IMG/VR virus record: IMGVR_UViG_3300045988_136498
Reading direction: 5' to 3' (one strand)
Source of the DNA: a virus
DNA length: 33,968 nucleotides
Below are positions 5,303 through 33,708 of the stretch, piece by piece. The position numbers and the translations under genes are program-made. The notes beneath the pieces were generated by a model. That model was not told the DNA's origin. It worked only from the letters and a program-made list of their open reading frames with translations, and made no database searches. Within the stretch, counting starts at the first letter, position 1. The number at the start of each line of letters is the position of its first letter.

Positions 5303-6208
5303 ATGAGACAAACATACGGTGCGGAAACCTATCAGAGCCTATATGACATCGATATAGGAGAAGCGGAGTATCGAGACGCCATGGCGACGAAGGGCGTCAA
5401 GGTCTACCGCAGGAAGGAGATCACATCGGGTCCAATTAAGGAGATTGAGGTCTGCGCCGTATGGAATGCGAAAAGCGAGGCAGGGCGCGCGAGAGCGGCG
5501 ATGCGCAGCCAAAGCGCCGAGACGATCGAGCGCAGAAACCAGAGGAATGCCGAAAAGACGGTCGAAAGGATCGTGAACGCGAATTTTAAAGCGGGAGACA
5601 TCGCGCTCTATCTCACCATGAGGAAGGAGGCAGATGCGGCAGAACTGAAGAAGGCGTTAACATGGTATATCAGGGAGATCCGACGCGAGATGAAGCGAAA
5701 GGGAACAGAGGACGCGATGAGGTATCTGTACATCATAGAGCAGGCGGATCGGGACGGGCACGCGGTCCGTCCGCACATTCACATGTTCGTGACGGGGCAG
5801 CTTGAGCGGGACTGGCTCGAAGAAAAATGGCGGGCGAGGCATGGGATCGCGAACGCGACGCGCCTCGTGCCGGACGAAAACGGCCTATCCGGATTTGCGA
5901 GATATATCCAAAAGGCGAAAAGGGATGTTCGGCGGGCGCGCCGGTGGGCGTGTTCGAGAAATTGCGAGAGGCCGCAGCCAAAACGGAGCACACGCCTGCC
6001 GGGCGGTAAGGTCATCACGAGAAGGTTGATCGCGGACATTGTGAGCGGGAGAAAAGATGCGAAGGCGCTTTTCGAAAAGGCGTATCCTGGGTGGATCTTC
6101 GTGAACATGCGCGCGAAGATGAGCGAGTGGGTCGCGGGCGTATATCTGGATGTAAGAATGCGGAGGTGGAGCGAGAATGAGCAGACTGTATCGCCTCAGG
6201 CGGTATAG
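5303..6208 (+). CDS. Rolling-circle replication initiator, HUH endonuclease-like
   Basis: HUH-like motif RPHIHMFVTG and a downstream Tyr motif GFARYIQKAK. Sits at the end of the early operon. Confidence 0.6.
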   Translation: MRQTYGAETYQSLYDIDIGEAEYRDAMATKGVKVYRRKEITSGPIKEIEVCAVWNAKSEAGRARAAMRSQSAETIERRNQRNAEKTVERIVNANFKAGDIALYLTMRKEADAAELKKALTWYIREIRREMKRKGTEDAMRYLYIIEQADRDGHAVRPHIHMFVTGQLERDWLEEKWRARHGIANATRLVPDENGLSGFARYIQKAKRDVRRARRWACSRNCERPQPKRSTRLPGGKVITRRLIADIVSGRKDAKALFEKAYPGWIFVNMRAKMSEWVAGVYLDVRMRRWSENEQTVSPQAV

Positions 6209-6608
6209 AAGAGCCGTGCTAGAGAGGGCCGCGATTCGCGAAGAGATCAAGCGGACAAGAGAAGAGGGGGCGGAGGTGACGGAAGCGGTCCAGGCGTCGC
6301 TTGCGGAATTCCCTTACACGAAAACTCGGACAAGAGTTGAGGGCAGGATTCTCAGCGCGCGGGATCAGGAGAGGACAAGGGAGCTCGCGGCGATCGAGGC
6401 GGAACTGAACAAGGAGATCTGGGAGACAGAGAAGATGGTGGCGGATGTGCGAGATCCGCTGATACGCGCCTGTGCAGAGATCCATTATCTGGAAAATAAG
6501 ACATGGAGAGAGACGGCGGTCCTGATGTACGGAACGCCGTCAGCGATGGACACGGTTCGGATGATGGTCAACCGATTCTTTGACAGGAGGGAAGAAGAGC
6601 GCCGTTAG
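6177..6608 (+). CDS. Putative late-gene transcriptional regulator (sigma-70 region-4-like HTH, ArpU/RinA-like position)
   Basis: RBS GGAGGTGGAG. The C-terminal part (IHYLENKTWRETAVLMYGTPSAMDTVRMMVNRF) looks like an r4-type HTH. It is the last rightward gene before the packaging module. Confidence 0.45.
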   Translation: MSRLYRLRRYRRAVLERAAIREEIKRTREEGAEVTEAVQASLAEFPYTKTRTRVEGRILSARDQERTRELAAIEAELNKEIWETEKMVADVRDPLIRACAEIHYLENKTWRETAVLMYGTPSAMDTVRMMVNRFFDRREEERR

Positions 6609-6619
6609 GCGCTCTTCTT
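6592..6619. terminator. Bidirectional hairpin terminator between convergent genes
   Basis: AAGAAGAGCGCC-GTTA-GGCGCTCTTCTT, a perfect 12-bp stem. Confidence 0.7.
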
Positions 6620-6634
6620 AGATGTGCTGGGCGG

Positions 6635-6826
6635 TCACTCGGGGCGGAGATCACGATCGAGCTCGGCGGAGACCAAGCGGAGAAGGAGCGAGTTAACGCT
6701 TTCCCCGTGACGGTCGGCGTAATCCTTGATGCGCTGACGCTGACCCTTGGGGACCTTGAATTCGATTCGATCGAATTTCTGCAAATAAGCCTGAGCATAG
6801 GGCTTGTTGTATTCGTATCGAGACAT
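6635..6826 (-). CDS. Ribbon-helix-helix (Arc/CopG-like) DNA-binding protein
   Basis: IEFKVPKGQRQRIKDYADRHGESVNSLLLRLV fits a beta-strand plus two helices (RHH). It is the last gene of the leftward cassette. Confidence 0.6.
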   Translation of the reverse strand: MSRYEYNKPYAQAYLQKFDRIEFKVPKGQRQRIKDYADRHGESVNSLLLRLVSAELDRDLRPE

Positions 6827-6883
6827 GAAGAGATCCTTTCAGAAGATGCACGCGACGAGGCAGCTGTCGTTGTATATACTCAT

Positions 6884-7096
6884 TTAGAGTTTGAATGTGG
6901 CGACCTTTTCATAGTGGGCACCGATCTCAACATTCTTCTCGCCGATGATGTAAGCGCTGTAGCTGCCATCCTCGCCGAAATGCAGAAATTTAGCAGTCAG
7001 GCCGTCAGCCGTCATGCCGACGAGCGTTAGGGAGGCGATATCGGATGATCCGATGCCGTGCTGGGGGAAGTCCTTATATTGCTTCTTTGCTGTCAT
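6884..7096 (-). CDS. Hypothetical protein (70 aa)
   Basis: RBS GGAAAGGAA precedes the ATG. A repeated hairpin element lies upstream. Confidence 0.55.
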   Translation of the reverse strand: MTAKKQYKDFPQHGIGSSDIASLTLVGMTADGLTAKFLHFGEDGSYSAYIIGEKNVEIGAHYEKVATFKL

Positions 7097-7131
7097 AACA
7101 ATTCCTTTCCGGGCGGTTTAACCGCCACCCG

Positions 7132-7344
7132 TTATTCCACGTAAATAGTCAGGTCTTCTCCATCGATGCGGAAAGAAACGAGCGTCGCGTTGAGCTGCGC
7201 TTCATACGGCGTGTCCTTCGCCATCGGGTCTGCCACAACGTCGCCGAAAAGCTGCGTTTCTTCCTTCCCGCCGCGAGCAACGAAAATGCGGTGAATCGAG
7301 CTGGACGCATAAAGGAGCTTGTTCAGAAATTGTCGTACTTTCAT
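7132..7344 (-). CDS. Hypothetical protein (70 aa)
   Basis: Internal ATG chosen, downstream of the repeated hairpin element. The maximal ORF extends to 7389. Confidence 0.5.
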   Translation of the reverse strand: MKVRQFLNKLLYASSSIHRIFVARGGKEETQLFGDVVADPMAKDTPYEAQLNATLVSFRIDGEDLTIYVE

Positions 7345-7407
7345 TGGTTGTTCACCATTTCCGGGCGGTTTAGCCGCCGCCCTCGGCAATCGGTCGTTCT
7401 GTGGCTC

Positions 7408-7734
7408 TTACTCGTCGTCCTCGTCGTCATCGTCCTTGATGCGGTTTGAATCGAACATCGTGTCGTCGTAGCTGATGCTGTGGAAGGCGGCCCAATCAAT
7501 CGCGCCCGTGTCCTCATCAATCGCCCACTCGTTGAGATCCTCCAGGCGAACGACACCAACATAGATATGACGCTTGCGCTTTTCAAAAGCGGTGAGATAC
7601 CACCAAGCCAGATCTGCGGCCTTGTTCGCCTCGTCGAGCGAATCATACGCGTCCTGAAAGTCATCGCCGCCGAATCCATTTTTCGGCTCGTCAACCACGA
7701 TGTATTTGTGCTCGTTCTTGTTGATGTTCAACAT
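7408..7734 (-). CDS. Highly acidic hypothetical protein (108 aa)
   Basis: RBS GAAAGGAAGAG. Carries 29 Asp/Glu residues, including the C-terminal DDDDEDDE tail. Confidence 0.65.
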   Translation of the reverse strand: MLNINKNEHKYIVVDEPKNGFGGDDFQDAYDSLDEANKAADLAWWYLTAFEKRKRHIYVGVVRLEDLNEWAIDEDTGAIDWAAFHSISYDDTMFDSNRIKDDDDEDDE

Positions 7735-7794
7735 ATTCTCTTCCTTTCTGCCCTCGTGACCGCCGGGGCGGCGCTTCTCTTGTTTCGATAACTC

Positions 7795-7823
7795 ATTATA
7801 CTATGCCGACATAGAAAAGCCAA
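7795..7823 (-). promoter_or_regulatory. Sigma-70-type promoter for the leftward cassette
   Basis: The minus strand reads TTGGCT, then 17 nt, then TATAAT. Confidence 0.65.
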
Positions 7824-8007
7824 TAGATTTTTTGCGGATTTTGCAAAAAAAATCAAATAAAAACGGCGACGGAACGCGCGCGCACGCGCGAGGGAAAAAT
7901 GTTCGCGCCGTTCGTTTCAGAGCGCTTAAAATAGAAGCATAGGAATGGGGGCGGAGGCCTCCGAGATCCTGCTTTCATACACCCCCCTTTAGCGATCCCG
8001 CTCTTCC

Positions 8008-8547
8008 TTGCGGGATCTTTTTCATTCGCAAGAAAAGGCGGTGGAATTGTTTTTGGGAAAGAAGAAGACGAGATACGAAGAATTGGGGATCGCCGAGAAG
8101 CTCGACAGCATCAGAGGTTGGGCGCTCCATGGCGGAAAGAAGGCCGTGGCGCAGCATCTCGGCATCGCGCAGAGCACGCTCGCGGCGTGGATCGGGCGTT
8201 ATCCTGACTTGGCGGAGGCCGTGAAAAAAGGCGTCGACGAGAGTAACGGAGAGTTGTTGACGTCGGCATTCGACATGGCGCGCGGATATGAGCGCGACGT
8301 CCAGGAGGTCGTGAAGGTCAAGATTCAACGCATTGATCCGGAGACGGGGAAGATCTTAACGGAGGAGCGGGCGGAGCTTGTGGAGCTGAAGAGATTTTTC
8401 CCGCCGGATCCAAGGATGAATCAGTTCCTTTTGGCGAATCGGCTGAGGGCCGATTACAGAAAGACGCCGGAGCCGGAGCAGCCGGCCGACGATAAAGTGG
8501 TGCGGCTTGTGTTCGAAGGCACAGAGGGCGAGGACTTCACCGGATGA
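8008..8547 (+). CDS. terS: Terminase small subunit
   Basis: HTH segment (AQHLGIAQSTLAAWIGRYPDLAEAVKKG) and the motif LLANRLRADYRK. Lies immediately upstream of and overlapping TerL. The start is uncertain: TTG 8008 lies inside a hairpin, and GTG 8041 is an alternative. Confidence 0.7.
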   Translation: MRDLFHSQEKAVELFLGKKKTRYEELGIAEKLDSIRGWALHGGKKAVAQHLGIAQSTLAAWIGRYPDLAEAVKKGVDESNGELLTSAFDMARGYERDVQEVVKVKIQRIDPETGKILTEERAELVELKRFFPPDPRMNQFLLANRLRADYRKTPEPEQPADDKVVRLVFEGTEGEDFTG

Positions 8548-16101: not shown

Positions 16102-19100
16102 ATGCAGTCATACGACGAGACGACCAGAAAGTACAACGAATATTTGAGCAATGCCCAGAAAAAAGCATTGAAGCAAAGGGCACAGCAGCTTTCAATGATG
16201 AACGCGCCGGAGAGGATCCAGGCGCAAAGCGAAGCGATCGTAGGACGAAAGAGGCAGAACGAGACACTTTCAAATCTTGGGCTTGCGAGATCGCTGACCA
16301 GAGCCCCATCAAGCGGCCTGGATGAGAAGGCGCGCCGGATGCGCGAGTTTGAGCAGCAGATGGGCGCGTTTGAAGCGAAGGAAACGGCGCAGCTCAACCG
16401 TGTAGGAGAGAAATACAAGCAGCAGACGATTGCGGCGCGGGCACGGCAGGCAGAGCTTAATCGCAGGAACAAAGCGACGGAGGACCTCAAGGAAGCGATC
16501 AAGGACGCCATGAGGAATGGCATGAATGCCGGAGAAGGGGCGGCCATGATGCGACAGGCGGATGAGGGCGACTTAGCAAACGTGGCAAACACGCTGCAAA
16601 AGTTCGGAGAAGGCCTCGAAAAGAACCGCGCATTTGTGAGAAACGCATTCTGGACAAAAGCTGCGAAACAAACAGTGTCTGACTTTGAAGACATGCAGAA
16701 AAGGCGGACGGACCTGTATTTCCAAAACCTATCAGATGAGGAGTTTAATGCGAAGCTTCGGGAAGCTAGGGAGGATTATGAAGCGGCGCGAGACCGCCGG
16801 GATCGGAGGCAGAAACAAACACTAATCTATAGGGAAACGGACGAAAACGGTAAGAGAGTGGAGAAGTCCAGAATCAACTGGACGGATGATGAAGAAGCAG
16901 AATATCAAAAGATCGCGACAAAATATGAGCGGCTTAAGAACTACAAATCAGAAAGAAATAACGAAAGACTACGAAAACAATACAGTGGATATTTCGTAAT
17001 GGATGCAGAGGACTTGAAGACAGAGAAGAAAAGGCTTGAAGGACTGCTGCAGGAGGAGCGAGCCGCGTCATACAGTCTGAGGAACGTAAGCGGAGCCCAC
17101 GTGGAGGAGTGGAAGAAAGAGGCAGAAACACGGATCGCGAAAATGCAGGCGCTCGAGGACAAGATCAGCCTTATCGGTCTGGTTGAGAAACAACATGCGC
17201 TAGACCGCAGGCAAGAAAGATACGAATCGCTGCGCAGCGTTGAGAACGCAAGAGACTTTGAAGAATACGCACAAAAGGGAGCCAATCTTACCCTGGTGAC
17301 ATCGGAAAAAGACGCGAAAAACATGCCAGATGCAATCAAGAGCGACGCAAAAACCGAGCTGACATATGCGATCATCAATGGGGGCGTAGAGGAAGCGGAC
17401 GCGAGACTGTTTGGCGGAGGGGTAAACACACAACAACAGCGAAACGAGATCCTTTCTCTGAGGGAATCGACACAGCTTATGACGCAGGAGGAGAAACAGG
17501 GATACAACTATAGGTTCGCGAAATATGGCGCAGAGGCCGCGAACGCCTACATGGATCGGTTGCAAACGTATATCAACGAAAGGCGAATGACGCAGCTGGA
17601 AGAGATGACGAAAGCAAACGCAACAAAGGTTCCATGGCTATCCGAGATCAGCCAGTCGTTGATTTCGGTTTTAGCAACGCCGTTTGAGGGATTGGGCGAG
17701 TTGTACACCTTGTACTCGGAAATAACGGGGCAAGAGATCGATCCATACCACCCATCGTTTCGAGCGTCTGTTTTCAAAAATGCGACAAGAACAGCTGTTG
17801 CGGACGAGATCGCGAAAGCAATCTATGACGACGGCGGAAGCGAAGCGCTCGGGAGCGCGCTTGCATTCGGGTATCAAACGCTCATGGGCGTTGCGGACAA
17901 CGCTCTGTTGCTCTACATGGGCAAGGGGCTCGGAACGTTCGGCACAACGGCAAAAGCGGCCCAAACGATAACAGAAGTGACAAACCTCGGGATCATGTCG
18001 TTAAACGCCGCGGCGGATACGACCCGACAGGCACTGCTGAACGGCGCGACGCAGGAACAGGCAGTTGCGCTCGGACTGTTCGCCGGAGCATGGGAGGCGG
18101 TGTTCGAAAAGGTATCCTTGGACAATCTTCTGGACATGCCGAAGCTGCAAGCCTCATCGTGGATCAGCAGGACGCTGACGCAGGCAGGCGTGGAGGCATC
18201 AGAGGAGTTCTGCACAGAGATGGCGAACACACTGACGAATATGGCGATTCTCGGGAGCGAAAGCGACTATAACAGTGCAGTGACACAGTATATGCTCAAC
18301 GAAGGTTACACGCGGGCGGAAGCGGAATCGCTCGCGATGCTGGAACAGATCCAGAACATTGGCATGGCGGCGGCGGGAGGTTTTTTGTCAGGCGGCATGA
18401 TGGGCGGTTTTCACGCAGCCATGAGCGATGTACAGACGAGACGGATCGGACAGACCATCAAGAGCAGCGGAGGAACGCAGACTTTGCTGGAGGAAGCATC
18501 GAAGATTCGGGACAACGGAATCGCGGAAAAGCTTTACGCAAAGTTGAACAATGCGTTTTCGGCAAACAAGAATCTGTCCAACATGGATGTTGGACGGATG
18601 AACTTTCTGGTGGCCACATCAGAGCTTCCAACCATCAACGGAACGATTGACCGATTTGTGCAGGAGGGCAAGCTGACAAAGCAGCAGGGCGAAAAAATGA
18701 AAGGGCTGTTTGAGCAGCGCGCCATGACGGAGGGGGTCACGGGGATCGAGCAGAGCGCAGAGGAAGCGGCAGAGTGGCGACAGTTCGATGCGGAGACGCT
18801 GAACGAGTTGTACTTAACGGTAGCGAAGCAATACGGCCAGCAGAACACCAAAGCAGAAACGAACAAACGAGAAGTGGCTGAACGTGCGGCAAAGCAGAAG
18901 GAACAAAACAATGAAAATCCGCTGCTGTGGCGAGCGGAGAGCCGCGGAGAGCGCGCGGGCGAGATCGATGACAGGATTTATCGCCTAAACGGTGAAACCG
19001 CCTCAGAGCTTGAAATGCGGCGCGAAAATCAAAACCGAGACGCATATCTGAGCACGCTGCCATATGCGACCGATCAGGGCGTGCGGAACAAAGCCGGCCG

Positions 19101-22100
19101 CATCACGCTGCCGGCCATGCTTGCGGACACGACGGACGCGAAAAGGCGCTGGGCGGAGGCAAACGAAATCGAAGTGCCGGAGGGCTTTCGCGGGCTTCCG
19201 ATGCGCTTTGAAACGGAGCAGCAGGCGGCGCGCGTCGCGGAGCCGGGCGAACGGCTGACGCAAAGCAGCTTGACGGAGAACACGAAGAAGGTGCAGACGC
19301 AGCGCGGCGTTACGATCCGGCTGCACAAGAACACGGATCTCAGCCAGCTGTCAAATACGGAGCGGGATGCCCTGAAGCTTGCGCAGGCGGTCAAAATGCT
19401 GGGCGTGACGAACGTGGAAGCACACGACACGCTGTCCGCCAATGGCATGTATGACCCGACCACAAACACAGTACATTTCGCGCTGGATGCGGAGAACCCG
19501 ATCGCCGCGCTGTCGCACGAGCTTGCACATTATATCGAGTATCACGCGGGCGAGAAGTACGGCGAATTTGTAGAGTTCCTGCAGCAACAGGCGAACGCAG
19601 CGCGAAGGAATGGCTGGGACACGCTCGTGCAGGAAAAGCTGGAACAGTACGCCGATGCAACGCGGTCCGAAACGGACATGCGGGCGCTGGCGGAATCGGA
19701 GGCGATCGCGGAGATGTGCGAGGATCTGCTACGGAGCGAGACGCGGTTCCGCGAGTTCATCCAGCGGGATCGCACGCTCGGCGAACGGATCGTAGACTTC
19801 TTTGACGACATTCTGCGGAATCTGCGGCAGCTCATCCCGACACGGTCGGCACGCGGCGCCTCCACCATGATCCGTGACGTGGAAAAAGCAAGGGACTATT
19901 ACTGGTCGCTGCTGGAGGAGGCAAAGGGGCAGGAAACGGCCGGGCAGGATCGAATCGCACAGGCAAAAAGGGGCGACACGAGCGGCCTATATCGGGGCGC
20001 ATATACCGAGAACGGTGAACTGCTGGTTGACACGATCGCGGAAGACGAATACAATGATAATGCAAATCTGCACAGACAGATACAACTCGGGAAGGCCCGA
20101 TACAAGGAAGTATTGCGGGAAGCGAACCTCGCAAATGCAGAGGAGTTTTTCGAGCGCGGACACTTGAGCAAATTGAATTCCGTGGTCGTCGGGAAGACAC
20201 GATACATGTACATGAATTTCAGCGATCAAAACGTTGGCGATGGAGTGAACATGATCGTGACGGACAAGGCGAGGGTCGGGACAAAAGAAGAAGCGAATTT
20301 GTTACGAGAGGTTGAAGATCTTAATGGAAGACAAAGGAGTAGAGAAGGTTCTGCAGAACGTCGATATGATGCAGGCGATGGGCGTACCGGCTCGGATCAG
20401 GCTGGACGCAATCAGAAAGATATCAGTTTCAGACGAGAGAATCGATCGATTCTGGGAGTATCTGAAAGCGAATCCCACGGCGACGCCAGAGGAGGTCGCA
20501 GAGGAAATGGACCGGCTGGAACGAACGATCCCTCTGACGCCGGAAAAAGCGCAGATGCTCCGAGAGATGGAAGAGGAGGACATGCAGTAAGCATAGGGCA
20601 TGCAGCAACAAATGAAAGCACCGATACCGGTGCTTTTTCTTTGCGTGAAACCCCGTGGGGTATCCGTGAATCGCGCCGCACGTTCCCGGAGCGGGAGGCA
20701 CGGCCGGCGTTAAAGCGAGCGCAGGAGATTATGGGAAGCACGCAGGAGCGGTACGAGGACGGACGGAAGATCCCGAGCGGAAAGGAGGTTGCGCAGCTTC
20801 TTGCGGGAGGGCTGCATGCAAACCGCAGCTGGGGCCTGAAGGACGTGGTGCGGAACATCGACGCATTCGCCGGGAAGAACACGGAGGTGCGGAATCGTCT
20901 CGAGGAGATGATCGAGCGCCCGTTCAATGAGGCGGGCGGCGCGTATGCGCGAAACCTCAAGGCGCGGACGACGGCATTCTTAGAGACGATGAAGGCGCTC
21001 GACATTCGAACGGAACAGGACAGCGCGGCGGTGCAGCGCTGGGGCGAGGGCGTCCGGCAGAACCAATACGGCGAGCTCGTGGAGTATACGCTGGCGGATC
21101 TGCAGCGAGAGTGCCCGGACAACTGGCGGAACGTGCAGCGGGCGGCAGAGGTATGCCGCGGGATCTATGAAGGGTATGTGGACGAGCTGAACGCCATGCT
21201 CGAACAGATCTATCCGAACGTGATCGAGCATGCGGAGACGGACGCAGAGCGATTGCAGCAGTATATCGATCTTGAGCGGGAGCGGATCGGGAACCAGCGG
21301 CGCGTGATCACGGAGATCGAGAACAGGATCGAGGGCAAGCGGGACGCGCTGAAGCAGCGAGAATTACCATTCGCAGGGAAGGATCGGACGAAAACGCAGG
21401 CCTATGCCAACCTCCAAAACGAGCTTGCGACGCTGGAGCTAAGGTTGCAAAACGCAAAAGCATTGCTGGAACGATACGAACAGCGGGCGATTGTTAGGGA
21501 AACGCAGAAGGCGGAAATTCTGCAGGCGATCGAAAGTGGCGAAGTTCTGCGAAATCGAAGAGTGTTGAAGCGCGCGGACTACTTTCACCACTTTCAGGAA
21601 ATGGAAGAAGGATTTGGCGCGCTTGCGAACATCTTCAGAACGAATTTCGACATCGATCCGCAGCTCGCGGGCAAGAGTGCGGAAACAAAGCCGAAGTCGA
21701 AATGGGCAGGCTTTATGCAGCAGCGCGGACAGGGACGGTATCAGGAGGACGCCGTTTCTGGTATGCTCCGATATATGAATGCAGCGGAGTACAAGCTTGC
21801 ATACGATCCTGTCTCTGAGCATCTGCGAACGCTTGAGCAGGAGGTGCGCAGCGAAGCGCGGCATTCGCACATTGAGGCGAACGACTTTCTGAAATGGATT
21901 GGCGAGTGGCGGAACAGCCTGCTCGGGAAAAGCAACAGCTTTGACCGCGTTGCATCGGACAGCGGAATCGTGGGGCGCAAGGCGATACAGATCGCAAAGT
22001 GGATCAACAGCCGCGTGAAGTCGAACGCAGTATTGGGAAACATGCGCTCGGCGATCGTACAGATATCGAACATAACGAATGCTGCAGCATACATTCCGAA

Positions 22101-24207
22101 CCCGCAGGACTGGATCAACGGCGCACGGAGCTACCTTGCGGCGAGAACTTCCGCGGATATGCAGAGTATCATGGAGCGGTCGAACTTTCTGTCACAACGA
22201 TACATGGACATCCAGAATCCGTTTGAGAAGACGTCGGCGGCAAAGAGGGTGGCGCTCTGGATGCTGGAGGTCGGCGACAAAGAGGCGGCAAAACTGATGT
22301 GGTGGTCTGCGTATCAGCAATTCCGACGCAGCCCGGAGAACGCACAACGGGTCGGCGGAATGAATTACCAAAACGCCGTAGAGTATGCAGACGACATCAC
22401 GCGAAGGAGCGTCGGAGGAAGAGGCGTCGGAGAGCTGCCGACGATGCTGAATTCACAGCTGCTGAACCTTATCGGACCGTTCCAGGTCGAAGTAACCAAT
22501 ACGTGGAACAACATGGTCGAGCAGGTCGGGAAAAAGAACGCCAAGGGACTGATCGCGTTTGAGATCACAACATTCGTGCTGAACACCCTGTTCCAGGCGG
22601 CAATCGGCGATAGACCGTTACCGTTCGACATGATCGAGGCTATCGTGGAGGCCATCAAAAACGCTGCGGACGATGAGGGTAAGTGGTATGAAGATGTGCT
22701 GGGCGGGCTTCAAGGAGCTGCGGCGGAGGTAGGAAAGGGCGTTCCGTTTGTGGCGCAAATCGCACCGGCACTCCTTAGCGAGGAAACGACGCAGATGCTC
22801 TTCGGATCAGATGATCCGACACGCGGGGGAACGGCCAACATTGGGATCAGTGCCATAGGAGACACGATTGAGGAAAGCGCAGAACTGATCAAAATGGTGC
22901 TGAGCGGGAACCTCAACAGCGCAGACAAGATCTGGACAGCACTGCTCGACCGGACAAGCGGTTTGAATCTACTCATGCCATGGGGAGCGACGCAGCTCGT
23001 GAGAACGGCAAAGGGGATCGATACCGTCGTGCGGGGATACAGTCAGAAACTGAATTCTGCAGGGGAAGCTGAGGCACAGTTTGCAGTAGATCAAAATGTT
23101 GGCGAACTGATTAAGGCGGCCGTTTTTGGAAAATGGTCGTTAAGCGAAGGGCAGGACTATCTGGGGAACTGGTCGCTTCTGCGAGCTCTTGCAGGGGACG
23201 AGCAAAAAGCACAGACCCGGCTAAACGCAGAGACGACTGAGGAAATGAAAGAGGCAGCAAGGGCGGGAATCCGTCCGAAACAGTTCTTCGAGATAGAGAA
23301 CAGCATGCGAGGCATGGAGAGCGTCCGGGATGAAGATGGGAACACGATTGATCCAAAGACGGCGCAGCAGGCAGAGAGAGTCGCAAGCGACAAAACTCTT
23401 ACGAACGTGCAAAAGCTCCTCATGACAAAGCAGATCAACCAGACGTTGTACGAACACGCGTCCGAGGCGTATGCGAAAGGCGTGCCGACCGACGTATTCC
23501 TTGAGCTGTATGCAAAAAAAAGCCGGTTCCAGCCAATGAAGGACGAGAACGGAAAGACGATAAAAACAACAAGCGACTATGTGCGTGAGGCTCTCCTGCG
23601 GGAAAAGACACTTACTGAAGCTCAGAAACGAACGCTCGATGAGATATTGATCGGAAGCAACAACAGCCGCGACTATCGAAGCGAAGCCTGGTTCGAATTG
23701 TCCAGCAACGAGGCGTCATATCAAAGGGCGCAGGAAGCCGAGAAGAGCGGGGTCAATTCGGGAACCTACTTGAAGTACGCAGAAATGAAAGCAAAGTACA
23801 GCAGCGATGAGGACGAGGAGACGGGGAAAGACGAGGTGCTGCAAGCCATCATGGAGGATGCGAGCATGAGCCCACAGCAGAAAGCTGTGTTGGAACAGGC
23901 GATGTACCATCAGGAGGGAAAGGCGTATGTTGCAAAAGACTATACAGACGGCAACCGGTTTTACCTCTCGCTTGTGGGCGGGAAGTACCCGGAGAAGGGA
24001 GAGCTTGCGCAAAAGTATGGGATTAGTCTAAAAAGCACTGTGGCTTATGTGAAACGATACAGACAGGCCGCAGCGGAGAAGACTGGAACCGGAAAAAATG
24101 GAGCGGTCAACAAGAGAGATTGCTTTAGCTTGATGGAGCGCGCGGGCATTCCGAAGGACAAGCAAGAAGTGATGTATCGCATCATGACAGGAAAGATCAG
24201 GTCGTAA
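16102..24207 (+). CDS. Giant virion-associated protein (2701 aa as one ORF) with coiled-coil, Gly-rich hydrophobic segments and an HExxH metallopeptidase-like motif; possibly two genes
   Basis: RBS GAGGGGAAG. SHELAHYIEYH sits at 19513-19545 (HELAH at 19516-19530). The frame is continuously open, but its translation is low-complexity over about 20325-20650. Confidence 0.7.
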   Translation: MQSYDETTRKYNEYLSNAQKKALKQRAQQLSMMNAPERIQAQSEAIVGRKRQNETLSNLGLARSLTRAPSSGLDEKARRMREFEQQMGAFEAKETAQLNRVGEKYKQQTIAARARQAELNRRNKATEDLKEAIKDAMRNGMNAGEGAAMMRQADEGDLANVANTLQKFGEGLEKNRAFVRNAFWTKAAKQTVSDFEDMQKRRTDLYFQNLSDEEFNAKLREAREDYEAARDRRDRRQKQTLIYRETDENGKRVEKSRINWTDDEEAEYQKIATKYERLKNYKSERNNERLRKQYSGYFVMDAEDLKTEKKRLEGLLQEERAASYSLRNVSGAHVEEWKKEAETRIAKMQALEDKISLIGLVEKQHALDRRQERYESLRSVENARDFEEYAQKGANLTLVTSEKDAKNMPDAIKSDAKTELTYAIINGGVEEADARLFGGGVNTQQQRNEILSLRESTQLMTQEEKQGYNYRFAKYGAEAANAYMDRLQTYINERRMTQLEEMTKANATKVPWLSEISQSLISVLATPFEGLGELYTLYSEITGQEIDPYHPSFRASVFKNATRTAVADEIAKAIYDDGGSEALGSALAFGYQTLMGVADNALLLYMGKGLGTFGTTAKAAQTITEVTNLGIMSLNAAADTTRQALLNGATQEQAVALGLFAGAWEAVFEKVSLDNLLDMPKLQASSWISRTLTQAGVEASEEFCTEMANTLTNMAILGSESDYNSAVTQYMLNEGYTRAEAESLAMLEQIQNIGMAAAGGFLSGGMMGGFHAAMSDVQTRRIGQTIKSSGGTQTLLEEASKIRDNGIAEKLYAKLNNAFSANKNLSNMDVGRMNFLVATSELPTINGTIDRFVQEGKLTKQQGEKMKGLFEQRAMTEGVTGIEQSAEEAAEWRQFDAETLNELYLTVAKQYGQQNTKAETNKREVAERAAKQKEQNNENPLLWRAESRGERAGEIDDRIYRLNGETASELEMRRENQNRDAYLSTLPYATDQGVRNKAGRITLPAMLADTTDAKRRWAEANEIEVPEGFRGLPMRFETEQQAARVAEPGERLTQSSLTENTKKVQTQRGVTIRLHKNTDLSQLSNTERDALKLAQAVKMLGVTNVEAHDTLSANGMYDPTTNTVHFALDAENPIAALSHELAHYIEYHAGEKYGEFVEFLQQQANAARRNGWDTLVQEKLEQYADATRSETDMRALAESEAIAEMCEDLLRSETRFREFIQRDRTLGERIVDFFDDILRNLRQLIPTRSARGASTMIRDVEKARDYYWSLLEEAKGQETAGQDRIAQAKRGDTSGLYRGAYTENGELLVDTIAEDEYNDNANLHRQIQLGKARYKEVLREANLANAEEFFERGHLSKLNSVVVGKTRYMYMNFSDQNVGDGVNMIVTDKARVGTKEEANLLREVEDLNGRQRSREGSAERRYDAGDGRTGSDQAGRNQKDISFRRENRSILGVSESESHGDARGGRRGNGPAGTNDPSDAGKSADAPRDGRGGHAVSIGHAATNESTDTGAFSLRETPWGIRESRRTFPEREARPALKRAQEIMGSTQERYEDGRKIPSGKEVAQLLAGGLHANRSWGLKDVVRNIDAFAGKNTEVRNRLEEMIERPFNEAGGAYARNLKARTTAFLETMKALDIRTEQDSAAVQRWGEGVRQNQYGELVEYTLADLQRECPDNWRNVQRAAEVCRGIYEGYVDELNAMLEQIYPNVIEHAETDAERLQQYIDLERERIGNQRRVITEIENRIEGKRDALKQRELPFAGKDRTKTQAYANLQNELATLELRLQNAKALLERYEQRAIVRETQKAEILQAIESGEVLRNRRVLKRADYFHHFQEMEEGFGALANIFRTNFDIDPQLAGKSAETKPKSKWAGFMQQRGQGRYQEDAVSGMLRYMNAAEYKLAYDPVSEHLRTLEQEVRSEARHSHIEANDFLKWIGEWRNSLLGKSNSFDRVASDSGIVGRKAIQIAKWINSRVKSNAVLGNMRSAIVQISNITNAAAYIPNPQDWINGARSYLAARTSADMQSIMERSNFLSQRYMDIQNPFEKTSAAKRVALWMLEVGDKEAAKLMWWSAYQQFRRSPENAQRVGGMNYQNAVEYADDITRRSVGGRGVGELPTMLNSQLLNLIGPFQVEVTNTWNNMVEQVGKKNAKGLIAFEITTFVLNTLFQAAIGDRPLPFDMIEAIVEAIKNAADDEGKWYEDVLGGLQGAAAEVGKGVPFVAQIAPALLSEETTQMLFGSDDPTRGGTANIGISAIGDTIEESAELIKMVLSGNLNSADKIWTALLDRTSGLNLLMPWGATQLVRTAKGIDTVVRGYSQKLNSAGEAEAQFAVDQNVGELIKAAVFGKWSLSEGQDYLGNWSLLRALAGDEQKAQTRLNAETTEEMKEAARAGIRPKQFFEIENSMRGMESVRDEDGNTIDPKTAQQAERVASDKTLTNVQKLLMTKQINQTLYEHASEAYAKGVPTDVFLELYAKKSRFQPMKDENGKTIKTTSDYVREALLREKTLTEAQKRTLDEILIGSNNSRDYRSEAWFELSSNEASYQRAQEAEKSGVNSGTYLKYAEMKAKYSSDEDEETGKDEVLQAIMEDASMSPQQKAVLEQAMYHQEGKAYVAKDYTDGNRFYLSLVGGKYPEKGELAQKYGISLKSTVAYVKRYRQAAAEKTGTGKNGAVNKRDCFSLMERAGIPKDKQEVMYRIMTGKIRS
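20324..20590 (+). CDS. Embedded +1-frame ORF (88 aa from the ATG; frame open from 20261)
   Basis: Balanced helical sequence using codons typical of this genome. TAA at 20588-20590 is followed by an intrinsic terminator. Confidence 0.45.
   Translation: MEDKGVEKVLQNVDMMQAMGVPARIRLDAIRKISVSDERIDRFWEYLKANPTATPEEVAEEMDRLERTIPLTPEKAQMLREMEEEDMQ
20615..20643 (+). terminator. Canonical intrinsic terminator located inside the giant ORF
   Basis: AAAGCACCG-ATAC-CGGTGCTTT followed by TTCTTTG. The stem is 9 bp and the loop 4 nt. Confidence 0.65.
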
Positions 24208-30129: not shown

Positions 30130-30154
30130 AAGTGTGTACTTTTTTGTGTACTTT
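30130..30154. repeat. 25-nt direct repeat, copy 2; candidate integrase arm-type site
   Basis: Identical 25-mer that overlaps the integrase stop codon. Confidence 0.8.
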
Positions 30155-31256
30155 ATAAAAACTCATTTTGATGCAATAAGGAAGAAAAAGCGGCGTCCGT
30201 CTTCTCTTTAATGCGCTGCATCTGGTCCGTCAGGGCGTGATTGTAAACGCCGAGCGTATCCATGTTCTGGCCATGCCCGAGAACAGAGCGAAGCTCCGCG
30301 AGCGACAGATCGCCGAGCCCTGCTATGATCGAAACGTAGGTATGCCGCATTTCATAAGGCGTGATCTCGGGGATATTGTTCCGGACGAGGTATCGATGCA
30401 GCTCAACGGCGATATGCTGCTGGCAAGCCTGGCTGCCGTCGGCAGCCGGGAACACATGCTTGCTGACGATTCCGGCTTGCAAGAGCATCTGTCGCTGCGC
30501 GGAGAGGATCTCCGCGGCGATAATGGTCAACGGTTCATCGCGAATCGCATTCTCATTTTTGCCGCGCGTCATCTCATCGTCATAATTTCTGGAGCCGCGG
30601 ACGCGGATCGTATTCCGATCAACGTGCCGCCATTCGAGCGCGACCAGTTCGCCGGGGCGCAGTCCGGTCACGACGGCGAAGCGCCACGCGTGAATGTACC
30701 AGCAGCGAACGTCCTTTCTGTAGTAAGTGGTCAAGTCCGAATTAAAAAGTGTGCTCAACCCGCTCGGCTGAAGGATGCGCTTCTCATTCTGAGGGGCGCT
30801 TTTGCTGACCACGAGCCGCTCCGAACGGTCATAGAATGCTAGGAAATTCGAGATCGCTCCGCGAATGTTCTCCAGCGACTTCTTGGATAACCCGTGCGCG
30901 GCTCCTTTGTTCAAAATGTCTTGAAAATCCTGCCGAGAGACGGAGGACAGCCTTTTCTTGCCGATCGCAGGGCGGATCCATGTTTCGGTGATGCTTTTGC
31001 GCTGTCGATAATTGGAACCGCCCGTGGAGATCTTGACGTGTTCCAACCATTTGTCGAGCAGGCGATCACAGCGCCCAGACGCGCCGGAAACGGTGGCGAG
31101 AAGCCACTTATCCGCCTTTCGGTTGCATTCGGTTTGCCCGGAACGGCCGGGCGTCGAGCAGACGAAGGTCTTGCGTTCGCCGGCCTCGTTGGTCACATTG
31201 ACCTGCCAACGCTGTGAGGCTTCAATCCACTTTGCGGTAGTGTTTCGAATTCGCAT
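30153..31256 (-). CDS. int: Tyrosine site-specific integrase
   Basis: RBS AGGAG 7 nt before the ATG. Motifs TGLRPGELVALEW (Arg), YEMRHTYVS (HxxR) and LGHGQNMDTLGVYNH (His/Tyr). The upstream part of the 448-aa ORF overlaps the next gene and is discarded. Confidence 0.93.
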   Translation of the reverse strand: MRIRNTTAKWIEASQRWQVNVTNEAGERKTFVCSTPGRSGQTECNRKADKWLLATVSGASGRCDRLLDKWLEHVKISTGGSNYRQRKSITETWIRPAIGKKRLSSVSRQDFQDILNKGAAHGLSKKSLENIRGAISNFLAFYDRSERLVVSKSAPQNEKRILQPSGLSTLFNSDLTTYYRKDVRCWYIHAWRFAVVTGLRPGELVALEWRHVDRNTIRVRGSRNYDDEMTRGKNENAIRDEPLTIIAAEILSAQRQMLLQAGIVSKHVFPAADGSQACQQHIAVELHRYLVRNNIPEITPYEMRHTYVSIIAGLGDLSLAELRSVLGHGQNMDTLGVYNHALTDQMQRIKEKTDAAFSSLLHQNEFL

Positions 31257-31314
31257 GAAAATCTCCTTTTTTGGATATACGAAAGCCGCCGTGCGGCGGC
31301 TTATTGGATACGGC

Positions 31315-31797
31315 TTACGTCTCGGGTGTGTCCGGGGCATCGGATGCGAGACCGCCATCGCCGGCTGCCGCAAGCGCGCGGGCATAATGCTTCCGCTGCC
31401 GGGAGGCATAGGAGGCGTTGATGATGAGGCCGAGCGTGACGCCAACAGCAGCGGAGGCGACATCCAGGAGCAGAGCCACGCCGCCGTAGGAGTACCCATA
31501 CCCCATCGAGGACACGGCGGCCGCGGATGAGATAGCCTTCACAAAGGGAGCGACGACAGAGAGCACGGCGAGACCGACGCCGAATTTGGACTTTCGGATT
31601 TCGGGCGGCTTCTCCATCAGCTCATCGTATATGGCGTCCTTTTTCTCATCACTGAGAGCCTTCCACTCAGGCACTGTGCGGCCGTCGGCAAGAATCGGCG
31701 CGCCGCATTTGGGGCATTTCCGCTTCAATGACGGCGAGGATTCGTCCCAACCCAAGTAGGTCTTTCGACATTTCAAGCAGTAGTACGCGAATTCCAT
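31315..31797 (-). CDS. Zinc-ribbon membrane protein
   Basis: RBS GAGGAGG. CLKC...CPKCG at the N-terminus and two hydrophobic Gly/Ala-rich segments at the C-terminus. Confidence 0.6.
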   Translation of the reverse strand: MEFAYYCLKCRKTYLGWDESSPSLKRKCPKCGAPILADGRTVPEWKALSDEKKDAIYDELMEKPPEIRKSKFGVGLAVLSVVAPFVKAISSAAAVSSMGYGYSYGGVALLLDVASAAVGVTLGLIINASYASRQRKHYARALAAAGDGGLASDAPDTPET

Positions 31798-31808
31798 ATG
31801 ATACCTCC

Positions 31809-32249
31809 TCAAACGATATATCCCATCAAGCGGCCGGCGATGTCGCGGAACCAGCCGACGTTGGGGTTGAGTCTGTCGCACACGAGCAAGCTGATCACGC
31901 CCAGAAGGACAGCGACCAGCGCCGCGACGATAAGCGCCTTTTCGGTGCGGAGCCGGTGAAGCTCACGCCTCTGTGATTCGACCTCGGCGCGGAGATAGTC
32001 GATCATGATGCTGTGCAGATCGTGAGAGCCTTCCGGCGGGACAAAGGCGGGGGAGAACAGATCGTCGAGCGAACCGTCCAACGCGTGGACGATCGCGACA
32101 AGCGTATCTGCGCGCGGGGCCTGCGTGCGGCCGTTGAAAACGTCTCTTACCGTCGGCAACGGAACGCCGGAGCGATCGGAGATCTGCTGCAGCGACAAGC
32201 TGCGGGAACTCCTGAGGGAATTAAGAGATTCGAGAAAGCCACAGTCCAT
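31809..32249 (-). CDS. XRE-family HTH protein with a C-terminal transmembrane anchor
   Basis: RBS GGAGG. HTH segment LSLQQISDRSGVPLPTVRDVFNGRTQAPRADTLVAIVHAL, a coiled segment, and TM ALIVAALVAVLLGVISLLV. Confidence 0.65.
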   Translation of the reverse strand: MDCGFLESLNSLRSSRSLSLQQISDRSGVPLPTVRDVFNGRTQAPRADTLVAIVHALDGSLDDLFSPAFVPPEGSHDLHSIMIDYLRAEVESQRRELHRLRTEKALIVAALVAVLLGVISLLVCDRLNPNVGWFRDIAGRLMGYIV

Positions 32250-32462
32250 GATATGCCTCCAAAACCCGAAATGGTGGAAAACCGTCTGAACTTGACGGAA
32301 CTCCGTGGCCGAAACGGGGTGTTCCGGTCTTGGCGCGCGGGCAGGAATCGGATATGATGAAACCAGCCCGGACGGCGACGCAGAGAAAGCGTCTGGGCGA
32401 CAGACGGCGGAGGATGTTGCAGCATCCACCGCTGCCAGAAGAATATGGCAGGGGGGAAAGAA

Positions 32463-32612
32463 ATGAAAAAGGAATCAATGATCAAACTGCTGCTCGATCA
32501 AATGAATGAGCAGCAGTTCCGGAACTATCTCGACATCATCTCCTCGTATGGAATGGCTCGGTTCGGTATCTCAGTTGTGGTTTCCGATAAAAATGTGGAG
32601 GAAACAACATGA
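32463..32612 (+). CDS. Small hypothetical protein (49 aa)
   Basis: RBS GGGGGGAAAG. The stop overlaps the next start. Confidence 0.35.
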   Translation: MKKESMIKLLLDQMNEQQFRNYLDIISSYGMARFGISVVVSDKNVEETT

Positions 32613-32698
32613 AAGAAAAGATTTTGAACCTACTGGAAAACGCAAGCGACCACGAGCTCCGTCTGATCTATCGATTCATCGTTGCACTGATCGCCTGA
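32609..32698 (+). CDS. Small hypothetical protein (29 aa)
   Basis: RBS GGAGGA. The motif ILNLLENASDHELRLIYRFIVAL resembles IKLLLDQMNEQQFRNYLDII of the preceding ORF. Confidence 0.35.
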   Translation: MKEKILNLLENASDHELRLIYRFIVALIA

Positions 32699-32700
32699 GC

Positions 32701-33063
32701 CTACTGCTCGTCAAACAGCTCCCGCGCCTTGCGCTCGATCAATGCCCATTCGTCGATTGACATCCGAGCGAGTACAATCAACAAACGTCGGCGGAAATCG
32801 GGATTGCCGCGGAGAACGTCCCCAAAGAAAGCTGCGAGTTCATCCTCGCGGCTTATTTTTATGGTCATATCGCCCTCGCCTGTGAGCAGCCATTGCTTGT
32901 TGAGATTGAAGCGGATCTCCATCAGCGCGACGATCGCGTCGGACGGCGTATTCTCGCCGGATTCCCATTTCCGAACAGCAGATAAGGACACATTGAGCGC
33001 TTTTCCGAAATTGGTCTGGCTTAAATTGAGCGAATTTCTGAAAAATTTGATGCGTTCATTCAT
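32701..33063 (-). CDS. CI-like repressor (XRE-family HTH)
   Basis: LNLSQTNFGKALNVSLSAVRKWESGENTPSDAIVALMEIRFNLNKQWLLTGEG. Divergent from the early promoter. Confidence 0.8.
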   Translation of the reverse strand: MNERIKFFRNSLNLSQTNFGKALNVSLSAVRKWESGENTPSDAIVALMEIRFNLNKQWLLTGEGDMTIKISREDELAAFFGDVLRGNPDFRRRLLIVLARMSIDEWALIERKARELFDEQ

Positions 33064-33145: not shown

Positions 33146-33191
33146 TTGACATGCGTTATCAAATGGCATATCATACTGTTATGAGATAACA
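33146..33191 (+). promoter_or_regulatory. Rightward early promoter plus a palindromic operator candidate
   Basis: TTGACA, 17 nt, TATCAT at 33146-33174. TGTTAT-GAG-ATAACA at 33177-33191. Confidence 0.6.
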
Positions 33192-33372: not shown

Positions 33373-33708
33373 ATGAGCAGCTGCAATCACGACTGCTTCA
33401 ACTGTCCGTATCCCGACTGCATTGTGGATGACATGACCGCAGAGGAGTATCGAGAGCTGAGCAGGATTGAACGGGAACTCATCAGACCGAAGAGCCGAAA
33501 GGAGCTAGCGATCGCAGCGAAGAAGCGCGAGTACCGGGAGGCGAATCGCGAATCGATCGCAGCGAAGCAGCGCGAGTACCGGGAGGCGAATCGCGAATCG
33601 ATCGCAGCGAAGCAGCGCGAGTACCGGGAGGCGAATCGCGAATCGATCGCAGCGAAGAAGCGCGAGTACCGGGAGGCGAAAAGAAAAGGAGGGAGTGAGC
33701 GAGGATGA
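33373..33708 (+). CDS. Cys-rich early protein with a 15-aa tandem repeat array
   Basis: CNHDCFNCPYPDC at the N-terminus, then IAAK(K/Q)REYREANRES repeated about 3.8 times. Confidence 0.65.
   Translation: MSSCNHDCFNCPYPDCIVDDMTAEEYRELSRIERELIRPKSRKELAIAAKKREYREANRESIAAKQREYREANRESIAAKQREYREANRESIAAKKREYREAKRKGGSERG
33511..33680 (+). repeat. 45-bp tandem repeat, about 3.8 copies, in frame
   Basis: Units at 33511-33555, 33556-33600 and 33601-33645, plus a partial unit at 33646-33680. Units differ only by A/C at one position. Confidence 0.95.

Follow-up and report, generated by a model that had tools for sequence, protein, structure and literature searches.

A four-gene operon with exchangeable cargo and a terminal ribbon-helix-helix regulator in a gut phage shares its layout with anti-CRISPR operons

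What is a small leftward operon doing among the rightward genes of a temperate phage? We asked this of the IMG/VR virus record IMGVR_UViG_3300045988_136498, a stretch of 33,968 nucleotides (here called the window) that is essentially the whole genome of a temperate tailed phage, with gut Clostridia as the host clade. At the boundary between its replication and packaging modules lies a compact minus-strand transcription unit (6592-7850) made up of a promoter, four open reading frames (ORFs) and a terminator. An earlier note, made from the sequence, had proposed this cassette as an anti-defense candidate built like an anti-CRISPR operon (acr-aca), with three small proteins of no recognizable kind followed by a ribbon-helix-helix (RHH) regulator. 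The four minus-strand ORFs that it described are all present: g1 (7408-7734; 108 aa; isoelectric point [pI] 4.19), g2 (7132-7344; 70 aa), g3 (6884-7096; 70 aa) and g4 (6635-6826; 63 aa; pI 9.39), the RHH protein. However, only g1 and g2 are intact small proteins; g3 is a truncated remnant. Comparison of related sequences gives good support to an architecture of one promoter, exchangeable cargo, a terminal RHH gene and a terminator. Our preferred reading, held tentatively and at slightly less than even odds, is that the cassette is an RHH-autoregulated, acr-aca-like accessory operon whose cargo would act against host defenses.

The boundaries of the unit are well marked. Its sigma-70-type promoter, which had been called near-consensus, was confirmed on the minus strand with a -35 element TTGGCT (7823-7818), a 17-nt spacer and a -10 element TATAAT (7800-7795), matching the consensus at 10 of 12 positions. 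Five sites of at least this quality occur in the 34-kb window, against 2.2 expected. By position, the cassette promoter and a plus-strand site at 33146, which lies between an HTH_3 gene (32701-33063, minus strand) and an ORF at 33373-33708, stand outside large ORFs; gene calling was not extended to the other three sites. At the far end, a predicted bidirectional terminator hairpin with a 12-bp perfect stem and a 4-nt loop (6592-6619) is common to the cassette and to a convergent gene for a 143-aa protein (p143). This hairpin has a folding energy of -22.8 kcal/mol (z = -5.3), and none of 200 shuffled sequences was equally stable. Transcription from the promoter at 7823-7795 would run leftward through g1, g2, the g3 remnant and g4 and would stop at 6592-6619, thus keeping the unit apart from the rightward genes on either side, which serve replication and packaging.

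To see which parts of the locus vary, we retrieved sister phages by exact-protein look-up of g1 and g4 and aligned them. Five cargo arrangements accompany an identical RHH protein, by whose identity these loci were retrieved. The window type, g1-g2-g3-RHH with lengths of 108, 70, 70 and 63 aa, is the commonest allele and was found in many samples. The same gene order occurs in L006 with a 134-aa g3 (108-70-134-63); L011 (134-aa g3 at 5584-5988) and L018 lack g2 (108-134-63); and L017, which also lacks g2, carries a 113-aa protein before its full-length g3 and RHH gene (113-134-63). The fifth arrangement, in L013 (5360-6200), consists of a frameshifted g1 and the 63-aa RHH gene. Here the loss of 10 bp shifts the reading frame of g1, g2 is gone together with most of g3, the -10 element reads TGTAAT, and the RHH protein is unchanged. 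In L006, L011 and L017 the -35 element is TTGACT, which brings the promoter to 11 of 12 consensus positions, and where g3 is full length the RHH gene follows it 12 nt downstream. On these alignments, the constant parts of the cassette are the promoter and the RHH gene, and the variable part is the cargo.

Two of the differences could be traced to defined junctions. The acidic 113-aa protein of L017 (1250-1591) stands in place of g1; homology between the two was suspected and could not be detected (BLASTP E 0.12). Similarity between their genes is confined to the ribosome-binding region and to the final ~18 nt, which encode DEDDE and the stop codon, and judged from the alignment L017 is an allelic replacement whose junctions fall inside the acidic tail. 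A 25-nt direct repeat flanks the g2 indel, with one copy at 7358-7382 and the other at 7106-7130, and phages without g2 carry a single hybrid copy, so recombination between the two copies would account for the presence or absence of g2. Sequence divergence between the window and L011 also differs by gene: nonsynonymous-to-synonymous counts are 4:3 in g1 and 4:1 in the N-terminal part of g3, compared with 0:8 in p143 and 3:12 in terS in the flanks. The count of 0:7 in g4 is not an independent sign of selection, because the loci were chosen by their identical g4 protein.

The assignment of the terminal gene to the RHH class was borne out. The g4 protein scores 22.9 bits against the Pfam family Arc (PF03869), above the gathering cutoff of 20.4, in a match that covers residues 18 to 54 of 63, and it matches phrog_13890 at 2.9e-10. 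A profile of the g4 subfamily matched Mnt (1e-4), AmrZ (6.6e-4) and Arc (5.6e-3) in PDB, as well as CopG. By these similarities g4 is a basic Arc/Mnt-type RHH protein, and as the last gene before the terminator it places a DNA-binding regulator at the 3′ end of the operon. At least 22 contigs encode the identical protein, and the cargo beside it varies among them; a close relative of it was not found in IMG/VR. As a separate observation, in two related phages, L125 and L127 (2288-2671 and downstream), a g4 homolog heads its operon, and the cargo downstream of it differs between the two: by eye, it is P-loop ATPase-like in L127 and acetyltransferase-like in L125. A 14-bp palindrome, in two copies, lies upstream of the RHH homolog in L125/L127.

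Where would such a regulator bind? The earlier note had pointed to an AT-rich inverted repeat, TTTTTTGC-N7-GCAAAAAA (7828-7850), just 5′ of the -35 element. This 8-bp repeat is indeed present, is unique in the window (0.15 expected) and is kept in all sister phages, with a T-run of varying length. As an operator, however, it is less likely than a perfect palindrome that had been overlooked, CTATG-tcgg-CATAG (7801-7814), which lies within the promoter spacer, directly against the -10 element. The spacer palindrome has no second exact copy in the window, where 0.39 are expected at one mismatch or fewer. In L013 the CTATG and CATAG arms are retained despite five nearby substitutions, and the center and the -10 element have changed. 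Similar palindromes occur at the promoters of two RHH homologs: L125 has ATAAG-cacc-CTTAT in the spacer directly after TTGACA, present twice, and L128 has ATATTG-ggta-CAATAT, so that both show a 5/6-N4-5/6 geometry at the core promoter. Given the retained arms in L013 and these like palindromes, CTATG-N4-CATAG is the best operator candidate for the RHH protein. A promoter in a different phage, L029, has ATTACA-N12-TGTAAT around its -10 element. We infer that g4 represses its own operon through the spacer palindrome: a g4 dimer would bind CTATG-N4-CATAG and end an initial burst of expression. The upstream repeat may serve as an UP-like element or as a further site for a regulator.

The least expected element of the cassette is the direct repeat itself, a linker that combines a hairpin with a Shine-Dalgarno sequence. 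Copy 1, GGGCGG-CGGCTAAA-CCGCCC-GGAAA (7358-7382, minus strand), lies between g1 and g2, and copy 2, GGGTGG-CGGTTAAA-CCGCCC-GGAAAGGAA (7106-7130, minus strand), lies between g2 and g3. The full unit of ~35 nt reads AAGCCGA-GGGCGG-CGGCTAAA-CCGCCC-RGAAAGGA and is followed 8 to 15 nt later by a start codon. Both of the copies in the window fall within the cassette (0.08 expected). Elsewhere, 57 contigs of IMG/VR and 7 genomes of Clostridia contain the exact pattern, which places relatives in Oscillospiraceae, Lachnospiraceae, Acutalibacteraceae and other Clostridia of the human gut and rumen; L019, L023, L026, L027, L117 and L132-L198 are among the loci that carry it. An ORF of at least 45 codons ends 6 to 68 nt (mostly 11 to 18 nt) upstream of 56 of the 57 IMG/VR copies, and 52 of the 57 are followed by the beginning of another small ORF. 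By sequence, the ORFs on either side fall into at least 29 downstream and at least 36 upstream groups. The linker also stands 3′ of g1 homologs in unrelated prophages and 3′ of a g2 homolog, it flanks a gene with an AcrIC5 match in L026/L027, and one of the 41 linker-flanked ORFs tested encodes an ArdC-N anti-restriction domain.

The linker is predicted to fold into a 6- to 7-bp stem that leaves the Shine-Dalgarno sequence unpaired. Its fold energy is unexceptional (z -0.3 and -1.4 for the two copies). Compensatory changes keep the stem in two diverged copies, GGCCGG/CCGGCC in L166 and GCCCGG/CCGGGC in L192. A covariance-model search returned almost solely near-exact copies, with too few diverged ones for covariation statistics. 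Rfam holds no family for the linker or for any other part of the cassette. More guardedly than for the operon as a whole, we suggest as a possibility that the linker is a portable, context-insulated translation start that doubles as a homologous-recombination junction, through which unrelated Clostridia phages exchange small, probably anti-defense genes and stack them behind a single RHH-controlled promoter, and that g1, g2 and g3 are three new inhibitor families. In our preferred reading of the operon, the linker before the cargo genes would supply the homology for gain, loss and swapping between phages.

We next consider the cargo itself. That the three small proteins lack recognizable motifs held true: g1, g2 and g3 have no match in Pfam (including its Acr families), PHROGs, NCBIfam or PADLOC, and sequence and profile searches of PDB returned nothing meaningful for any of them. 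A match to structural or metabolic families, which would have told against an anti-defense role, did not appear in these searches. Among GenBank phages, blastn and tblastn found only unannotated gut contigs and one hypothetical protein of a Fusobacterium phage. The structural comparison that had been proposed was run on models of g1 and of the g3 family, with no PDB match for the former and a weak one for the latter, as described below. Members of all three cargo families occur solely in phages and prophages.

The composition of g1 is as acidic as had been reported, with 29 Asp/Glu residues and a C-terminal DDDDEDDE. The family has 12 close clusters, and its profile reaches 306 representative clusters, 117 of them at E <= 1e-10, which share a ~90-aa domain in phage and prophage contexts. 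This domain is sometimes fused to other uncharacterized regions; Pfam searches of these multidomain proteins gave no informative fusion partner, and Pfam searches of the neighbors of g1 homologs gave nothing. The acidic tail had been taken as a cue for DNA mimicry. We rejected that inference, because the tail is missing or different in several family members and its DNA is common to g1 and to the nonhomologous replacement gene of L017; by this comparison the tail is part of the recombination junction. An AlphaFold2 (AF2) model of g1 (predicted local distance difference test [pLDDT] score, 79.8) found no PDB match with Foldseek (best E 0.84), and against BFVD it matched only uncharacterized gut-phage proteins plus, weakly, DUF7336. 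In other prophages, g1 homologs belong to a variable stretch that runs up to the integrase and diverges from an early operon with SSB and AntA genes.

The g2 family is highly conserved and comprises 28 clusters. Its N terminus, MKVRQFLNKLLYASS, is invariant in 20 homologs, which confirms the ATG start of g2. In other temperate phages, g2 homologs are among the first genes (first or second) of the early operon, beside a divergent CI-like helix-turn-helix (HTH) repressor gene.

In the window, g3 is the first 70 residues of an all-beta protein of ~100 to 134 aa. Relative to L006, L011 and L017, codon 71 has changed from TGG to TAA and 147 bp downstream are deleted; a 14-codon relic of the C terminus, MSIYNDSCLVACIF and its stop codon (6839-6883, minus strand), is left behind. 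The window copy is therefore a remnant and is probably nonfunctional. The family forms 35 clusters, at least 123 of its loci are in IMG/VR, and alignment shows a ~100-aa domain with invariant motifs. An AF2 model for the g3 family is all-beta (pLDDT 80.7), and the window truncation falls inside its strand 63-75. The best PDB fold match in Foldseek was ComJ (E 6e-3; template modeling [TM] score, 0.47 to 0.48). A PDB profile search gave no match to support this likeness, nor did Pfam in 31 family members, and we take the ComJ match of the model as a lead only.

Homologs of g3 recur beside different small regulators. In L029, L030 and L031, which are a different phage, a g3 homolog and a 47-aa RHH-like protein form an antisense two-gene unit adjoining the Rep gene. 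In L029 this unit has its own promoter (TTGCAT-17-TATAAT), the RHH-like gene begins 5 nt after the g3 homolog, and the 47-aa protein is weakly similar to the RHH part of KacA/DUF1778 antitoxins (E 0.12). In L092 a g3 homolog is followed by an RHH gene of the g4 subfamily, and in L088 by a gene for a 111-aa protein that looks HTH-like by eye only. In L026 a g3 homolog lies in an array with Pfam matches to Lar_restr_allev and AcrIC5. What looked like a recurring sequence downstream of g3 homologs is neither a tRNA nor a repeat array, nor does it belong to an RNA family of Rfam.

How, then, might the cassette act? The cargo proteins are small, probably soluble and acidic to mildly acidic (pI 4.2 to 6.2), and their most plausible role is the stoichiometric inhibition of host proteins, defense systems being the likeliest targets. 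Anti-defense is the best single guess because the cargo turns over rapidly, is restricted to phages and includes families, g2 and g3, whose homologs occur in early operons. It is favored further by the recurrent pairing of g3 with different regulators and by the faint associations with ComJ, ArdC, Lar and AcrIC5. The acr-aca-like layout proposed in the earlier note stands, with its own promoter and terminator, a kept RHH gene and varying cargo, but an anti-defense family match does not accompany it.

Several observations weigh against an anti-defense role. None of the cargo matches a known Acr or anti-defense family by sequence, and none does so convincingly by fold; the ComJ match has a TM score below 0.5 and lacks sequence support. 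The conservation of the RHH gene is partly a product of the retrieval, which used the identical g4 protein. Moreover, the regulator is generic to mobile elements and undiagnostic of anti-defense, because relatives of its subfamily also stand before a serine recombinase, beside relaxases and at the head of other variable cargo. Most g3 homologs have no adjoining regulator, and 39 of the 41 linker-flanked ORFs tested have no Pfam match. The decay of the cargo in L013 beside an intact RHH gene may mean that the RHH protein has a role beyond the cassette. Finally, the integrase-side position of g1 homologs suits functions expressed from a prophage equally well.

This last point leads to the alternative that survives best, though we consider it unlikely: that the cassette is a moron, which the lysogen would express from the cassette promoter to its own benefit, for example through superinfection exclusion or an effect on host physiology, and not to carry an infecting phage past host defenses, with the RHH protein setting the level. 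The phage is temperate, the integrase and HTH repressors being present in its genome, and an antisense unit with its own promoter and terminator that is present in some sister phages and absent from others has the classic layout of a moron. The orientation of g1 homologs, with the integrase and away from the lytic early genes, fits as well. The cargo, however, does not look the part. Exclusion proteins are usually membrane proteins and defense effectors are usually large enzymes, whereas these proteins are 70 to 134 aa long and mildly hydrophilic (grand average of hydropathy, -0.06 to -0.85), show no long hydrophobic stretch by eye and match no PADLOC defense model. In addition, the g2 and g3 homologs of other phages lie inside early lytic operons.

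The early-operon position of g2 homologs bears on a second alternative, which we think rather improbable: a developmental control module like immI of P22, where Arc and Mnt control ant. The cargo would then be early regulators or host-takeover factors, such as modulators of the choice between lysis and lysogeny or of replication and packaging, and the RHH protein a developmental repressor. It would suit the membership of g4 in the Arc/Mnt family, a candidate operator between the -35 and -10 elements like that of Arc in Pant, the CI-like gene that diverges from the operons with g2 homologs, the location at the replication/packaging boundary and the persistence of the RHH gene in L013 after its cargo decayed. 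Yet Pfam finds no ANT, Bro, KilA or DNA-binding domain in g1 to g3, and near-identical phages can dispense with these genes or interchange them, which would be unusual for core regulators. In immI, moreover, arc is the leading gene, whereas the RHH gene of the cassette is the final one.

The decayed alleles also raise the question of whether the cargo matters at all. It could be largely neutral ORFan material at a recombination hot spot, the RHH gene being kept for another purpose, such as control of a neighboring promoter. The truncation of g3 in the commonest allele, the frameshift and deletions of L013 and the high nonsynonymous-to-synonymous counts, which fit relaxed constraint, all agree with this. 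Nevertheless, we regard it as improbable. Each of the three families, g1, g2 and g3, is maintained with invariant motifs in many phages that are unrelated to one another, so they must be functional proteins somewhere, and in the window g1 and g2 are intact, each after its own Shine-Dalgarno-like purine tract.

A type II toxin-antitoxin pair of g3 as toxin and the RHH protein as antitoxin, which the earlier note had named as a result that would refute its proposal, is highly improbable and was rejected: the short spacing after g3 (12 nt in sister phages, 5 nt in L029), the faint KacA/DUF1778 likeness of the L029 protein and the commonness of toxin inactivation in such loci, as in the window g3, are outweighed by the lack of a toxin family match for any cargo protein in Pfam, NCBIfam or PADLOC, by a g4 that ends about four residues past the RHH fold, and hence without the C-terminal extension through which RHH antitoxins typically bind their toxins, and by the lack of obligate pairing, given that the gene upstream of the RHH gene varies or has decayed and that an RHH gene follows g3 in just 1 of 45 distinct g3-plus-downstream combinations in IMG/VR.

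The surrounding genome is that of a temperate phage for which sister contigs of 33,951 and 33,674 bp are known. Its rightward genes include Dam, HNH, a replication initiator, terS (8008-8547), terL and a P22-type portal gene. The cassette had been described as the only leftward block, which is correct between the early and lysis genes but not for the genome as a whole, since the lysogeny module of an integrase and two HTH_3 proteins (30153-33063) is also leftward. The label of late regulator for its 143-aa neighbor found no backing; p143 has no family match in Pfam or PHROGs. The replication initiator, a REP_ORF2/G2P-type protein by family match (phrog_3584; 5303-6208, rightward), is of the rolling-circle type, and it coexists with a tyrosine integrase (30153-31499) in a ~34-kb temperate phage with a P22-type portal. 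One quarter of the genome is taken up by a single ORF of 2,701 aa (16102-24207) between the structural and tail-fiber-like genes. A GC-rich alternating motif, CGCGCGTGCGCGCG (7877-7890), stands upstream of the cassette promoter and also occurs in the otherwise different L029 family (L029 4724-4737, as well as L030 and L031), and both phage families carry REP_ORF2/G2P-type initiators. Possible roles for this motif are those of an origin, of a pac site and of a regulatory site common to both families.

If the cassette is an RHH-controlled anti-defense operon, it would offer three candidate inhibitor families, an RHH bait for guilt-by-association searches and, in the linker, a short DNA tag for the borders of exchangeable genes, present in at least 57 viral contigs. 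Searches with this tag might bring many more such families to light. To our knowledge, the anti-defense genes of gut-Clostridia phages are almost unexplored, because the Acr and Aca baits have come mostly from Proteobacteria and Bacilli. Whatever the role of the cargo, the sister series is a clear example of gene gain, loss and pseudogenization at defined junctions.

Set against known systems, the cassette comes closest to acr-aca operons. Like them, it places small uncharacterized genes on a strong promoter ahead of a small DNA-binding regulator, has an inverted repeat at the core promoter and keeps the regulator while the upstream genes vary; unlike them, it holds no gene homologous to a known Acr or anti-defense protein. 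An RHH-regulated anti-defense operon is already a known kind: the RHH-type Aca14 (WP_005725436.1; 2026) was shown experimentally to autoregulate anti-defense operons by way of an inverted repeat that overlaps the -10 element (PMC13551039). The likeness of g4 to Aca14 lies in fold class (RHH instead of HTH) and in the position of the candidate operator alone, and the host clades differ, gut Clostridia here and Proteobacteria there. What would be new here is that host clade and the three uncharacterized cargo families. The proposed logic of a burst followed by shut-off would be that of Arc at P22 Pant and of Aca1, Aca2 and Aca14 at acr promoters.

Comparison with P22 immI is also instructive. 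The Arc operator in P22 Pant lies between the -35 and -10 elements, as does the candidate operator of g4, which belongs to the Arc family PF03869 and has Mnt as its best PDB sequence match; in both cases, a small autonomous unit stands among oppositely oriented genes of a temperate phage with a P22-type portal. In contrast to immI, the RHH gene is last, an antirepressor (ANT/Bro) gene is lacking and the cargo is variable and dispensable. The cassette resembles morons in having its own promoter and terminator between conserved modules and in being present or absent in close relatives, and differs from them in its several genes and built-in presumed repressor. As for ComJ/Nin, the inhibitor of the Bacillus subtilis nuclease NucA (PDB 4mqd), it is small, all-beta and similar in size to the g3-family model, but the superposition is loose (TM 0.47 to 0.48; root mean square deviation, about 5 Å; 12 to 13% identity), sequence and profile searches do not connect the two, and the window g3 is without the last third of the fold.

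The linker, finally, recalls two kinds of boundary element: the PeSL cassettes of T4-type phages (PMC2839356, PMC4122927) and the start-associated sequences of Cluster K mycobacteriophages (PMC3203893). With these it shares a short conserved motif, just ahead of start codons, that recurs where small variable ORFs meet and that coincides with the end points of insertions, deletions and replacements. It differs from both in being a GC-rich hairpin with a Shine-Dalgarno sequence, in lying within an operon and carrying no promoter, and in being common to several unrelated lineages of Clostridia phages.

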